A stretch of 64,000 nt of DNA from Escherichia phage ev_rybdy3. Position 1 is the stretch's first letter. Each line of letters opens with the position of its first letter. Shown piece by piece: positions 18,285 through 26,975 of this stretch. Position numbers and translations under genes: made by a program. Location: sequence record PQ819470.1; one strand, given 5' to 3'. The notes beneath the pieces were generated by a model. That model saw nothing but the letters and a program-made list of their open reading frames with translations, did not search any database and was not told where the DNA came from.

Positions 18285-18682
18285 TTTATTCCGAGATTCT
18301 AAATAAAGTCAGAGAGATGCGGCAAGGTGATGCAGTAGTTGATGTTCTGGTTCATCTGGTAGCATCCTTGCAAGAAGAAAACGATTTGGTTAAACAAGAA
18401 AACAAGGCATTAAGGAAGGCAATAAGTAACCTCTCCAATAGCCTCTCTTTTTAGTACTATGACGCTCTTTCTATAGCGTCGTGCCCTCTCCCCCCATTTG
18501 AAGCTTCCGCATAGCCGCCTTTGAGCGGCTTTTTGCGTTGCTGTAGGAGTTATCCGTGGAGTCAGTTATTTCATATTTAGGGGAAGGTGGATTTTTCTTC
18601 CTATGTGGTATGCTTTTTGGTGTTATTATCACCTTATTGATGCTTATGATAGGGTTCATGGAAGCAGTATCACGTTAACAAC

Positions 18683-18710
18683 CGCCCCGGCTACGGCTGG
18701 GGCTTTTTTA
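18683..18710 (+). terminator. Rho-independent terminator
   Basis: GCCCCGGC-loop-GGCTGGGGC hairpin followed by TTTTTTAT. Confidence 0.6.
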
Positions 18711-18758
18711 TGCCCGTAAAACAGGAGGTATCAAGTTCTGATAACAACGGCCCAGCTA

Positions 18759-19148
18759 ATGTTGACATTGACTATTTATTATGAGGCAGGGAATCAGCCA
18801 ACCGCATGTAAAGCTATGGTTGCGGATACCGTGATAAATAGAATGGCTCAACGAAAACTGACCGCTGAACAGGTGATAAGACAAAAGAGCCAGTTTGAGT
18901 GGATTCCGGTACTATTAAAACAGGAGAAACCTTATAAACGTTATGTAAAGCTGATTCGTGATAAAAATCCGATGACTAAGAAGGCCATTGGAGAAAGCGA
19001 GCGGCTGGCTAAACGTGCCCTTAAGAAGAATTATGTTCCGCTGTACAGTGGGACTTACTTTCAGAGTAAGAGCGAAGGGGTGCCAAAATGGTATGCCAAT
19101 CCTATGTATTGTGGTGATTTAGTGTTCGATAATAGCTCTAGGGAATAA
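18759..19148 (+). CDS. Cell-wall hydrolase (SleB/Hydrolase_2-like)
   Basis: Motif AMVADTVINRMAQ...QKSQFEW resembles the Hydrolase_2 family signature (..V..NR......QF.); start uncertain. Confidence 0.45.
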   Translation: MLTLTIYYEAGNQPTACKAMVADTVINRMAQRKLTAEQVIRQKSQFEWIPVLLKQEKPYKRYVKLIRDKNPMTKKAIGESERLAKRALKKNYVPLYSGTYFQSKSEGVPKWYANPMYCGDLVFDNSSRE

Positions 19149-19347
19149 TCACTAGTGCCAGATTTGACAAACTAAATTCCTTTATAAACCAACCACTTAG
19201 TAAATTTATTGAAAAAGATGGTAGTATTCTGGGACTATGGGTAATGCTCTGTATATAGACCCTTTGAAAATTTCTTAGAAAATAAGTTTACTAAATATAA
19301 CTTACTTAAATAATATTACTTTTAATCTCTGATAAAGGGTAAATAAT

Positions 19348-19644
19348 ATGACTTTAGAAGTATATAAATTCCTTTTTGTAAGCTGTTTAACTATCAGCGT
19401 TCTAGGGTTTATTATTCTCAGAAACAAAGCAGCAAGCTGGGAGAGAATGTACAAATCTCTAGTCCGAGTGGATGAGATGTATAATGAGAAAGTTAAAGCA
19501 ACTCTTAACGATCTTATTATGCAAGTTGAGGACAGAAACAAGCGTCTTCAGAATCTCAACCATGAAGTATTACGCCTTGCTCGTGCTAATGAAGATTTGC
19601 GAGTAGCCATTGCTAAACAGCAGGAGATTAACAGTGAAGCATGA
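19348..19644 (+). CDS. Membrane-anchored coiled-coil protein (hypothetical)
   Basis: 98 aa, N-terminal hydrophobic segment then coiled-coil. Confidence 0.4.
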   Translation: MTLEVYKFLFVSCLTISVLGFIILRNKAASWERMYKSLVRVDEMYNEKVKATLNDLIMQVEDRNKRLQNLNHEVLRLARANEDLRVAIAKQQEINSEA

Positions 19645-19891
19645 TATCAATACAGCACCTGTGGTTAAGCAGCTTAAAGATCTAAGAGTGGGGGATGTTT
19701 TTGAAACTGTACCACATAAGAATAAGTTGTATCTTGTAGTAAAACTCGATTCTTCAACTGTTTATCAAGCCCAATGGAAACCTGATAAAAAGGTAGTAGT
19801 AGATCTTACTTCAGATAGAGTAACAATGTTGAGAAAAGATACTGTTGTTCAAATAGTTGATAATGTTCGTCTTACTAATAAGGTGGATTAA
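19634..19891 (+). CDS. Small paralogous-family protein (GDVF family), copy 1
   Basis: GTG start after AGGAG SD; shares LxxGDVF...NLxxG pattern with 10 other ORFs. Confidence 0.5.
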   Translation: MKHDINTAPVVKQLKDLRVGDVFETVPHKNKLYLVVKLDSSTVYQAQWKPDKKVVVDLTSDRVTMLRKDTVVQIVDNVRLTNKVD

Positions 19892-19893
19892 CA

Positions 19894-20130
19894 GTGAAAG
19901 TTAATATTAAATCCGATCGTACAATGCTTCGCTTAAATAATATGAAGCCGGGCGTTCTATTTGAGCGTAAAGATTCCCTTTACATCAGAACCGACACTCT
20001 GTACGCAGATAATTATATCAACTGTGTTGATGTAGTAACTGGAAAGCTCATGCCTTTTAAACGGGATGAAGTCTGCCAAGTTCGTAGCGATCTCCACATA
20101 ACTAACATAGAGGCTAAAGATGAAGATTGA
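19894..20130 (+). CDS. Small paralogous-family protein, copy 2
   Basis: 78 aa; LNNMKPGVLFERKDSLYIRTD pattern. Confidence 0.5.
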   Translation: MKVNIKSDRTMLRLNNMKPGVLFERKDSLYIRTDTLYADNYINCVDVVTGKLMPFKRDEVCQVRSDLHITNIEAKDED

Positions 20131-20371
20131 TCTTGAGATGAAAGCTAAAGAGTTGTGTGTGGGTGATTTGAAACTTGGTGATGTATTCCAAGTTAAGGCA
20201 ACATGTATTGATTATTACATGATCGTTCAGCTATATACACCACATGTGTCAGAGACTGATCTTCGGAATGGTTGTGTAGTGCTTAGTTTAAGCACCAATC
20301 AAGTAATGAAGCTAGATTCAAACTTACCTGTTTCAGTTATCCATGATGCAGTAATTACCAATCGGAAGTGA
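20120..20371 (+). CDS. Small paralogous-family protein, copy 3
   Basis: 83 aa; LKLGDVFQVKATCIDYYMIV pattern. Confidence 0.5.
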   Translation: MKIDLEMKAKELCVGDLKLGDVFQVKATCIDYYMIVQLYTPHVSETDLRNGCVVLSLSTNQVMKLDSNLPVSVIHDAVITNRK

Positions 20372-25164: not shown

Positions 25165-25406
25165 AGATCATCCCAAAGAAAAAGGATAATACGGTACGGT
25201 TGGAAACGATCATTCCCGGAAACCCCTTCGTGGTTCAGCACGGAAGTGCCTCTCCTCAATATTATATGAGGGTTGAAAATGCTTCTGGTAATATCCGTAT
25301 AGCCAGTGGCTGGGTTCCTGTGGTAAACCTTTCCACAGGTGTACTATCTGTTAAAGGTCTTGATGATCAGGTAGAAATGATTCGTATGTCAGTGGTTCAG
25401 GAGTAG
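25161..25406 (+). CDS. Small paralogous-family protein, copy 9
   Basis: IPGNPFVVQH...YYMRVENASG...VVNLSTGVLSV pattern. Confidence 0.45.
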   Translation: MKIIPKKKDNTVRLETIIPGNPFVVQHGSASPQYYMRVENASGNIRIASGWVPVVNLSTGVLSVKGLDDQVEMIRMSVVQE

Positions 25407-25408
25407 GT

Positions 25409-25657
25409 ATGAGCATCATTAATATTAAGGTTAAGGGCAAGGAGGAAATAGTCCTCCGTGTTAGAGATCTAAATATGTCAGATGTGTTCACTCTCCAAGA
25501 GTGTCAGAATCAAAAGATTTATATGCTTACAGCTAAAAGCAGGGGCTGTCAACCTGCTGGAGCTGTTAACCTAGGCACTGGAGAACTACGTGTCATCTCT
25601 GGTGATATGGTTGTTGGTGAGAAGTTTATTAAGGCTGAAATCATCTTAACTTCATAG
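25409..25657 (+). CDS. Small paralogous-family protein, copy 10
   Basis: NMSDVFTLQE...IYMLTAKSRGCQPAGAVNLGTGELRV pattern. Confidence 0.45.
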   Translation: MSIINIKVKGKEEIVLRVRDLNMSDVFTLQECQNQKIYMLTAKSRGCQPAGAVNLGTGELRVISGDMVVGEKFIKAEIILTS

Positions 25658-25665
25658 GTGATCTA

Positions 25666-25878
25666 ATGACACAAGAAGAGAAAGATATACTCATCCAGAA
25701 TGCGTATCTACTGTTTTCCTCTGAGGATGTTCTGTTCGATCAGCTTTCTAAATTGTGGAAAGTGTCCGAAGAAGAGACTAAAGAGAAGTTTTATTCTGGC
25801 ATAACAGAAGATTACAAATCTTTTCTTGGTGAGGTGCTGAGAGATCGGCATGTGTATCTAAGTAATTACGCCTGTTAA
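25666..25878 (+). CDS. Hypothetical protein
   Basis: 70-aa ORF. Confidence 0.4.
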   Translation: MTQEEKDILIQNAYLLFSSEDVLFDQLSKLWKVSEEETKEKFYSGITEDYKSFLGEVLRDRHVYLSNYAC

Positions 25879-26113
25879 TAGGAAAACAAATGAGACGTAA
25901 AGCATATTCTTATGACGATATGATTAACCAGAAAGGCTTCGGTCAACGACAGCCTGACGGTTCAATTATCTGGTTCGTAAACGGACAGAAAAAGGTAGCT
26001 AAATAAGCCCTCTTCTCTCCCCCCCTTTTAGTACTATGACGCCTCTCTGTGGGCGGCCCAATTTGCGTAGGGAATTCCCTCTACGCAGTCATGATTTTTA
26101 AGGAATTTCCCCT

Positions 26114-26347
26114 ATGTCTAAAGTAAGTGCAATTGATGCAATCCGTCAACCGTTCCAGTTCCAATCCAAATCAACCCAAACCTTCAGCGAGCCTAAGCAA
26201 ATTCGCTTGGGTGGCACAGAGAAGACTGTGTTTGATCTGGCTAAAAACAAGAGCGTTACCGTAGTTGATGGTGGCACTCTGGTTAACGTTTCCCATCGTA
26301 TCCGCACTGGCAAAACTGCCAAAGATCGTGCTAAGAAAGGTGAGTAA
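26114..26347 (+). CDS. Hypothetical protein
   Basis: 77-aa ORF. Confidence 0.4.
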   Translation: MSKVSAIDAIRQPFQFQSKSTQTFSEPKQIRLGGTEKTVFDLAKNKSVTVVDGGTLVNVSHRIRTGKTAKDRAKKGE

Positions 26348-26589
26348 TGAAAATAGGGAAACCAGCTAAGGATGTTCTAGCGAAGATTGGTGATATCTCT
26401 ATTGGGGAAGTTTTCTCAGCTGAGCACTTTTCAAGTTACTACATGAGAATCCCTGACACTAAAGTTGAGGGTTGCATCATCCCTGCCAACGCAGTTAACC
26501 TGAACACAGGACACCTGTCTGCATTCAAACCTGATTCACAGGTTACTGAAATCAAAGATGCCTACCTCGCCTTTGGTGGGGATAAGTAG
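26347..26589 (+). CDS. Small paralogous-family protein, copy 11
   Basis: IGEVFSAEHFSSYYMRIPDTKVEGCIIPANAVNLNTGHLSAF pattern. Confidence 0.5.
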   Translation: MKIGKPAKDVLAKIGDISIGEVFSAEHFSSYYMRIPDTKVEGCIIPANAVNLNTGHLSAFKPDSQVTEIKDAYLAFGGDK

Positions 26590-26975
26590 AGTAACATCTA
26601 TAGCCTTCTTCTGAGGGCTATGTGAGTTATTCTGACTCAACTAACCTAATCTTAATATATTTCCCGTATGGGGCCGATGCTAGGGCGAGGAATGTTCCTC
26701 AAACATCCGTCGGATAGATATTTTAAGAGCAGGTTATCCACAGATATTGGGTAATATCTTTTTGGATTTAAAGCTTGGCTCTTTTCGGAGAGTCCTTTTT
26801 TAAATTCAATGAGAGGAAATATGTCTAAATTAGATTTAAAACTGCTAGCAGCAGCGATAGTGATTTGTGCACTAGCACTGGTAACGCAGAGAACATCTGG
26901 ATTTATTCAGTGTTTCTTTTCTGGGCAATCCACTTATCAGTGGGTTATTGACGAGTGTAAACAACAGGAGTAAGT

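Follow-up and report, generated by a model that had tools for sequence, protein, structure and literature searches.

We found that the early region of Escherichia phage ev_rybdy3 (PQ819470.1; the window is the whole stretch analysed, 64,000 nucleotides) carries, at two places, a strand-specific, covarying and strongly selected RNA structure that lies inside the early transcript. It consists of a ~45-50-nt hairpin, H1, and a downstream multi-helix domain, M, and its two copies are referred to as elements A and B. Judged by sequence comparison, H1+M is a structured RNA module that has not been described before; between two phage families it is conserved to about the same degree as a tRNA gene. 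A second repeat of the same region, an exact 17-mer, had been described in the initial annotation as a parallel case, which was not borne out, as the two are different kinds of feature; from its core sequence, the 17-mer most likely acts as a DNA-level nick or recognition site and not as an RNA signal. The window belongs to a phiEco32-like coliphage (Kuravirus). Over positions 18000-27000 it matches Escherichia phage ev_rybdy8 with 100% identity and many Kuravirus phages with 90-95%, and the early gene region occupies the plus strand at ~12-30 kb, matching phi32_128 down to ~phi32_80.

A covarying RNA structure behind two early genes

The hairpin with arms ATAGCC and GGCTAT followed by GTGAG, which the initial annotation had reported twice, is present at 20825-20857 (its start had been given as 20824) and 26600-26626; the exact 13-mer AGGGCTATGTGAG occurs at these two places only, and GGCTATGTGAG is found twice versus 0.02 expected. 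We observed that this hairpin is the upper part of H1, which begins where the gene before it ends, at the stop codon, and that, as had been noted, both copies stand directly behind a member of a genuine paralog family (cross-hitting PHROGs, alignment) and are followed by stretches free of open reading frames (ORFs), namely intergenic region (IGR) A at 20816-21173 and IGR B at 26590-26808. The parts of the two elements and their surroundings are the following:

20815-20863, plus strand: H1 of element A; lower stem ACACC/GGUGU, internal loop with GUGAG, upper stem AUAGCCCU/AGGGCUAU; begins at the stop codon of the paralog gene ahead of it
20879-20933, plus strand: M domain of element A; P0 GGC-AUAU-GCC, P1 ACACCG/CGGUGU, loops CUAGGG and AACAUC, P2 GAGC..GCUC
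20934-21173, plus strand: distal structured part of IGR A; hairpins at ~20964-20987 and 20999-21026, long hairpin at 21028-21140
26589-26633, plus strand: H1 of element B; lower stem AGUAAC/GUUAUU, internal loop with GUGAG, upper stem AUAGCCUUC/GAGGGCUAU, loop UUCU
26642-26736, plus strand: long-range helix UAACCUAAUCUUAA / UUAAGAG..GGUUA around M of element B; covariance-model match at 26658-26716
26734-26742, plus strand: perfect DnaA box TTATCCACA, the first bases of which belong to the RNA helix
26767-26803, plus strand: conserved intrinsic terminator, GGCUCU..AGAGUCC and U6 with an A/U extension, ending ~6 nt before the Shine-Dalgarno (SD) sequence and ATG of the next gene (26809)

The lower stem of H1 occurs in relatives in the compensated variants AGUGAC/GUCAUU and ACAUC/GAUGU, the internal loop holds GUGAG, or UGGAG in 7-11-like phages, and the upper stem reads AUAGCC../..GGCUAU, with apical loops that in the B copies are UUCG, UCCG, UACG, UUCU or CUCC and thus mostly of the UNCG type. 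Across 21 distinct H1 sequences, 97.5% of the paired cells of the alignment hold a base pair, compared with 36-54% when the partners are slid, and five pairs are compensated. M lies 15-25 nt downstream of H1 and folds into three helices. P0 has 3 bp and an RUAU loop and is built from GGC/GCC, CCC/GGG or GCC/GGC, P1 has 6 bp and appears as ACACCG/CGGUGU, UCACCG/CGGUGA, CCGAUG/CGUCGG or UCGGUG/CGCCGA, and P2 is a variable hairpin in which the first bases are always GAG; the loops CUAGGG and AACAUC are invariant. The paired cells of M are filled in 98.3% of cases, versus 34-51% with slid partners, and six pairs are compensated. Using RNAalifold on the alignments of the two elements, we count 12 and 15 compensated pairs, and the minimum free energy z-scores are −5.67 for element B and −3.42 for element A. 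The unpaired positions that flank P2 (columns 30 and 45 of the M alignment; 20907/20918 and 26686/26701 in the window) also covary, as A..G or C..A; one A..A is seen and C..G never, which suggests a conserved non-Watson-Crick contact.

In element B, the long-range helix around M is compensated in 7-11-like phages, and the conserved intrinsic terminator follows. The DnaA box TTATCCACA at its end is invariant in every B copy in which that stretch was read, in E. coli as well as Salmonella phages, and it is the only perfect box in 64 kb. H1 itself has no T-run and hence, as had been recognised, is not a simple intrinsic terminator; GUGAG and heteropolymeric sequence follow it, and the terminator scan lists none at H1, whereas genuine terminators lie nearby at 18513, 18684, 26063 and 26777. 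Regarding the further short motifs that the two ORF-free stretches had been said to share, ACATCCG is homologous in both and lies within the conserved M domain, whereas GTTCCTCA, with five occurrences on the plus strand, is found at non-equivalent positions: one copy has it behind H1, the other within a variable helix. Most relatives do not have it in their B element.

Upon searching related genomes, covariance models of M and of H1 matched exactly the same loci, two per Gordonclarkvirinae genome and one in the 7-11-like Salmonella phage SE131, and gave no match in LUZ24, in HK022 or at the P22-like locus (ST104). Scores reached 60-67 bits on the plus strand versus 15-24 bits on the minus strand. 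With filters off, the best match of covariance model R1 in the whole HK022 genome had 10 bits (E ~1). Rfam 15, run over the window, placed only tRNA-Arg above its gathering threshold and returned nothing in IGR A or B at E<=10. A pattern scan of IMG/VR with GCTAGGG..AACATCCG was discarded, as its matches were almost all chance and a structure filter left only known isolates; stricter scans of IMG/VR, metagenomes and GTDB genomes yielded only kuravirus-, suseptimavirus- and 7-11-like sequences, together with a few chance matches. Compared with SU7, IGR B is 86% identical, the top value in 19 kb, and the protein phi32_88, encoded two genes downstream, only 41%. When the same length of DNA (19 kb) was compared with SE131, only tRNA-Arg, IGR B (26589-26811, 71%) and a fragment of the ligase gene aligned. 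Conservation in relatives, which had been proposed as a check, was found for both repeats, each being kept in related phage genera.

In the distal part of IGR A, the long hairpin at 21028-21140 is closed by the conserved stem CCAGUUG/CAACUGG, and its apex differs among kuraviruses, with unrelated hairpins at this position in NJ01- and SU7-type phages. The apex at 21051-21117 has 79% identity to the leader hairpin between nutL and gene 24 (N-like) of P22-like phages (ST104), with a 21-nt identical core CGGCAATGAGTACGCGGTCAG that in those phages stands just downstream of boxA/boxB. The lambda N-leader counterpart of this hairpin is an RNase III site. As in the P22-like leader, the IGR A sequence comes shortly before a small gene, here phi32_112, and is part of a long irregular hairpin with a conserved closing stem. 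In contrast, the likeness is confined to the distal part of IGR A, and no boxA/boxB pair or N homolog was identified; phi32_112 was considered as an N-like peptide and dropped, the resemblance being weak and visual only.

The 17-mer and its likeness to phage nick sites

The 17-mer TTTTAGTACTATGACGC occurs twice in exact form, at 18449-18465 (previously placed at 18448-18464, off by one) and at 26026-26042, and matches with up to three mismatches number three in the window versus 0.20 expected, a count that none of 100 shuffles reached. As had been described, the two early copies come close after gene stops, copy 1 overlapping the TAG of the ORF at 18281-18454 and copy 2 starting 20 nt past the stop of the gene at 25890-26006, and both adjoin C-rich tracts. 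The features are listed below:

18449-18465, plus strand: 17-mer copy 1; core TACTATGAC at 18455-18463, predicted nick between 18458 and 18459 (consensus from PMC3517423)
18458-18483, plus strand: hairpin UAUGACGCU-loop-AGCGUCGUG, the 5' arm of which begins at the predicted nick position
18484-18495, plus strand: C-rich tract CCCTCTCCCCCC
18513-18535, plus strand: intrinsic terminator downstream of copy 1, annotated in WFI101126
18684-18709, plus strand: second terminator after copy 1, from the terminator scan
26008-26025, plus strand: pyrimidine/C-rich tract upstream of copy 2
26026-26042, plus strand: 17-mer copy 2; core TACTATGAC at 26032-26040, predicted nick between 26035 and 26036
26063-26097, plus strand: hairpin TGCGTAGGGAATTCCCTCTACGCA with a T-run behind it, resembling a terminator, after copy 2
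61211-61227, minus strand: third motif copy TTCTAGTACTGTGACGG; core at 61213-61221, on the sense strand inside a phi32_26 homolog

In Pseudomonas phage tf, 14 single-strand nicks were mapped at the consensus 5'-TACT/RTGMC-3' (PMC3517423), and WACTRTGAC was reported at 13 strand-specific breaks in phage Rembedalsseter and as enriched in 61 LUZ24-like phages (PMC11780129). All three sites of the window, as well as all copies in phiEco32, WFI101126, EP335, SU7, Bas86 and ECBP2, read TACT(A/G)TGAC and match TACTRTGMC and WACTRTGAC. Across four genera, the core is TACT(A/G)TGAC(G), and its sole variation is A or G at position 5, as in the published consensus. The third copy is kept in four genera, SU7, ECBP2 and EP335 among the phages that have it, within a stretch that is only 74-81% identical. 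Kuravirus, Nieuwekanaalvirus and Suseptimavirus keep both early copies, with differing flanks (TTTTAG versus GTCAAC or TTTAAC) and an invariant TACT(A/G)TGACGC; a hairpin with the 5' arm GACGCY comes next.

We observed the clearest numerical signal in SE131, a member of the sister group, in which TACTRTGAC occurs 12 times versus ~1.5 expected (Poisson P = 1.8e-7), with 11/12 sites on the plus strand and seven in the first 17% of the genome; by annotation coordinates, most of these sites are apparently within genes. In the same genome, ACTACTGTG and CTACTGTGA are tied as the most frequent 9-mers (15 versus 0.85 expected). The 9-mer ACTACTGTGA is likewise found 15 times (0.85 expected) and ties as the commonest, and four of its sites are without the final C of the tf consensus, so that the recognition sequence of 7-11-like phages may be shifted to ACTACTGTGA. 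LUZ24 has nine motif sites, all on the plus strand. At 1918 and 3341 of LUZ24, intergenic nick motifs lie in the loops of GC-rich hairpins, GGGGCG-TACTATGA-CGCCCC, whereas the kuravirus motif lies at the 5' base of its hairpin; nick sites may be linked to inverted repeats. The relative positions of the sites, measured from the early end, are 9.0, 18.7 and 64% in phiEco32 versus 9.1, 18.7 and 63.0% in tf, which may be coincidence. LUZ24, phiEco32 and SE131 have in common the primase/helicase (45-49% identity), DNA polymerase, exonucleases, TerL, portal and major capsid protein (MCP), and also a COOH-NH2 ligase/amidoligase/GATase/RimK block, by annotation in the same order, the cyclotransferase of which is annotated in both but gave no tblastn match. 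Inheritance of one recognition system is therefore plausible.

Because the core equals the nick consensus, is present in coding sequence, and is over-represented and strand-biased in the sister group, the 17-mer is best placed at the DNA level, and the RNA processing or small-RNA role that the initial annotation had suggested for it is probably wrong. We consider it fairly probable that the core sites are nick or nickase sites in kuraviruses. TACT(A/G)TGAC(G) would then be the kuravirus version of the LUZ24-like site-specific single-strand nick (or nickase/recognition) motif, the sense DNA strand would be cut after TACT, and the location within compound terminator regions between early genes would be incidental. 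The likeness to LUZ24-like nick sites extends over the identical 9-base core including the R degeneracy, usually followed by G, syntenic placement, a common core genome, and the motif of SE131 with its excess, strand bias and concentration in the early arm. In contrast to those systems, kuraviruses have three sites only, placed on the sense strand of both arms, and their nicks are predicted.

Several observations weigh against a nick function. By count, TACTRTGAC in kuraviruses shows no excess over chance (three versus 1.2-1.8 expected). Two of the sites are on one physical strand and one on the other, always the sense strand, versus a single strand in tf and LUZ24. Conservation extends past the 9-mer, to 16-17 nt, and the two early sites adjoin hairpins, C-tracts and terminators, possibly pointing to a role at the RNA level. 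In the literature, no nicks are reported for kuraviruses, and no nickase candidate shared among LUZ24, SE131 and kuraviruses was found. Two candidates for the enzyme were rejected, the ORF of LUZ24 gp43 with its SE131 homolog (T7 endonuclease I-like), which has no kuravirus homolog, and the HNH genes phi32_30/31, which are without a LUZ24 or SE131 counterpart.

The alternative is that the 17-mer works in RNA, as an RNase E-type cleavage site, as the 5' seed of two sibling small RNAs from 3' untranslated regions (~75-90 nt to the next terminator), or as part of a compound terminator. We judge this unlikely. Both early copies do lie in 3' untranslated regions and are followed by a hairpin, the sixth pair of which covaries between the copies (T-A versus C-G), and by an intrinsic terminator, and in SU7 and EP335 a U-run stands directly behind the hairpin. 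Each copy is also flanked by the exact 10-mer CTCTCCCCCC, which is found twice only on the plus strand, at 18486-18495 and 26015-26024 (~0.06 expected). However, the same core is present in a late coding region and ~12-15 times in SE131, apparently mostly within annotated genes, it matches a mapped DNA nick consensus down to the degeneracy, and no complementary target of the 17-mer was found in the window. We also observed that CTCTCCCCCC follows the nick-type core at a distance of 23 nt in one case and precedes it by 8 nt in the other; C-rich tracts stand beside the motif in relatives too, and they could be rut-like, anti-SD-like or a feature of the DNA. Other uses of the 17-mer were rejected: as a −10 element TACTAT has, by our reading, no conserved −35 or extended −10, and it gives no gp36 consensus match; direct reading of the sequence shows that small ORFs from the ATG within it would encode peptides of 5 and 21 aa with no SD; and the boxA-like ACGCTCTTT at 18461, in copy 1, was treated as chance because copy 2 is without it.

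Possible functions of the H1+M module

Published work on phiEco32-type phages puts the early promoters at the beginning of the cluster and nowhere else, and identifies tAATGTAtA as the promoter element of the phage sigma factor. We found four strong sigma-70 promoters (12006, 14471, 14671 and 15162), no gp36 element (tAATGTAtA) in 12-30 kb, and, using the terminator scan, plus-strand intrinsic terminators at 17037, 18513, 18684, 21516, 26063 and 26777. In IGR B, the sole sigma-70 match is at 26632 (9/12), and by our reading the same stretch of 7-11-like phages is without such a match.

The RNase III signals of T7 early mRNA (R0.3-R1.3) are well established, and H1 resembles them as a two-stem hairpin with a small internal loop between cistrons of an early transcript made by host polymerase. 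Such signals have ~20 bp of helix, often with an internal loop, between cistrons, and H1 agrees with this pattern: its lower stem has 6 bp and its upper stem 9-10 bp, and the small internal loop that separates them contains one C/U-G pair. By analogy, H1 may be a T7-like RNase III signal that releases a stable RNA containing M, a proposal that we hold tentatively, with somewhat less than an even chance. H1 would be cut like the T7 signals, leaving a protective 3' hairpin on the upstream side, and/or would shield the upstream message at its 3' end; the M-containing RNA would be freed as a stable species of ~200 nt, which from element B would stop at the conserved terminator (~170-215 nt) and from element A at the distal long hairpin. 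The earlier suggestion of RNA processing or of the ends of small RNAs fits H1, as a strand-specific covarying hairpin at a cistron boundary that is coupled to a structured domain, although its cleavage is predicted only. H1 differs from the T7 signals in having no sequence similarity to them, in its shorter stems (~6 and 9-10 bp), and in being always coupled to a downstream structured domain. Three points tell against this proposal: for an RNase III substrate the helix is rather short and is not continuous, M and terminator stand in a tight conserved arrangement in element B that also suits an attenuator, and element B contains a perfect invariant DnaA box. Taken jointly, a nick motif for the 17-mer and a processed RNA module for H1+M form the explanation that we rank best, with about an even chance that the whole holds.

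A second possibility, which we consider unlikely, is a cis-acting leader or attenuator, riboswitch-like or protein-responsive. In element B, M would then control how much polymerase reads through the terminator that lies 60 nt further on and enters the amidoligase/replication block; in element A, it would control translation of phi32_112. It keeps this standing because the order of M, terminator and next gene, with no detectable promoter between, is conserved from kuraviruses to 7-11-like phages. As in riboswitch and attenuator leaders, a conserved multi-helix domain precedes an intrinsic terminator and genes; its invariant internal-loop nucleotides resemble a binding pocket, a correlation (A..G or C..A) links the positions on either side of P2, and for element A RNAalifold predicts that UCCUC, which follows H1, base-pairs with GAGAG, the SD sequence of the gene downstream. 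In contrast to such leaders, H1+M has no Rfam family, no match to a known riboswitch and no conserved antiterminator, as by our reading the candidate AAGAGC/GCUCUU of kuraviruses is not found in 7-11-like phages. Furthermore, element A is without an adjacent terminator, and the downstream gene varies among groups, the upstream paralog gene being the more constant neighbour.

A wider joint reading, to which we give a low probability, would make H1+M a new class of phage regulatory RNA and at the same time extend LUZ24-type nicks to phiEco32-like and 7-11-like phages. Under it, the RNA might sense a ligand or protein as an attenuator and so gate entry of host polymerase into the amidoligase/replication block, or it might be stable and act together with the adjacent SH3/KOW-like proteins.

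It is improbable that the repeats serve chiefly as recombination linkers or as mobile non-coding cassettes, similar to those of T4 (PeSL), that shuffle small early genes and have no function of their own. In many relatives, homology begins exactly at the stop codon and H1, with a different upstream gene, the B copy of SU7 bears an A-type H1, the distal apex of IGR A is swapped among phages and shared with P22-like phages, and IGR C, a further non-coding stretch described below, shares sequence with N4-like phages. Both T4 PeSL cassettes and H1+M are repeated non-coding cassettes that border variable small early genes, with mosaic breakpoints at the cassette, whereas PeSL consists of a promoter and a stem-loop, and H1+M has no promoter and a much larger covarying RNA structure. 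Linkers would not keep compensatory changes, invariant loops and 71% identity across two families where the flanks do not align at the DNA level. A linker role cannot explain the covariation and is thus at most a side effect, and as such it can coexist with the combination of nick motif and processed RNA.

Very improbable is a put-like role, in which H1+M would act in cis as an RNA that makes E. coli RNA polymerase resistant to the early intrinsic terminators. As with putL/putR of HK022, there are two paralogous, cis-encoded structured RNAs per genome in an early operon that contains terminators, here six on the plus strand, yet with reported promoters only at the start of the cluster, and P0 and P1-P2 form adjacent stem-loops that are 0-1 nt apart. 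However, three terminators lie upstream of the first element, the promoters are a long way from both elements, SE131 carries just one copy, midway in its early cluster, the architecture differs, and the covariance model is without a match in HK022. Least credible is a DNA-level replication or DnaA-controlled site in element B (an origin or a DnaA roadblock, with the hairpins as single-stranded DNA or cruciform signals), as the box, although invariant between otherwise variable flanks and adjoined by AT-rich hairpins, is single with no cluster, its GGUUA pairs with an equally invariant UAACC, element A is without a box, GC skew is featureless there and follows transcription only, and G-U pairs, UNCG loops and strand-asymmetric covariance-model scores indicate RNA.

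Early-region surroundings and meaning of the two elements

The genes next to H1 belong to a group of at least 11 paralogous genes that encode proteins of 70-85 aa, at 19646-20815, 23198-23650, 24910-25657 and 26347-26589. The proteins have the motif L..GDVF...Y/F...VNL.TG and are predicted to be small SH3/KOW/Tudor-like beta-barrels, and the family is also found in 7-11-like phages; Pfam and PHROGs gave no functions for the neighbouring small proteins. We also observed an A/T-rich repeat, AAATTAAATTCCTTTAG..., of 48-75 nt at 11951-12025, 14416-14490 and 19169-19216. The first two copies lie upstream of the early promoters at 12006 and 14471, and the third stands ahead of the paralog cluster, is without a consensus −35, and is followed by TAATGCTCTGTATATA, which loosely resembles the gp36 element.

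IGR C (24050-24590) is the third long non-coding stretch of the early region and has no Rfam match. Its part at 24056-24292 is kept in kuraviruses, ~24152-24383 has 80-85% identity to non-coding DNA of N4-like (Gamaleyavirus/G7C-type) coliphages, and it contains the hairpin AGGGAGG..CCCCTCCCCC. Within IGR C, 24419-24572 resembles a tRNA remnant or an unusual tRNA, as its acceptor has 7 bp (TACAGGT/ACCTGTA) with ACCA behind it and its T-arm, GTAGG-TTCGAAT-CCTAC, is perfect, yet it contains ~75 extra nt internally; ARAGORN and Rfam make no call, and only a few relatives have it, for example phage 1-6bf.

Phage DNA with site-specific nicks has been on record for ~50 years, and what the nicks do and, for most groups, which enzyme makes them have stayed elusive. 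On its sequence, the 17-mer is probably a further instance of an already known nick-associated motif. If the LUZ24-type motif does operate in phiEco32-like and 7-11-like phages, the nick question would become testable in E. coli and Salmonella, kuraviruses, with only three sites to mutate, would offer a tractable E. coli model, and a comparison of the three groups could point to the enzyme. As for H1+M, together with the tRNA gene it is almost the only DNA that can still be aligned to SE131 in the 19 kb compared, which indicates strong selection. The module borders the hyper-variable early genes and the conserved metabolic/replication block in a phage with a well-studied transcription programme, and a function for H1+M would therefore fill a gap in that programme.

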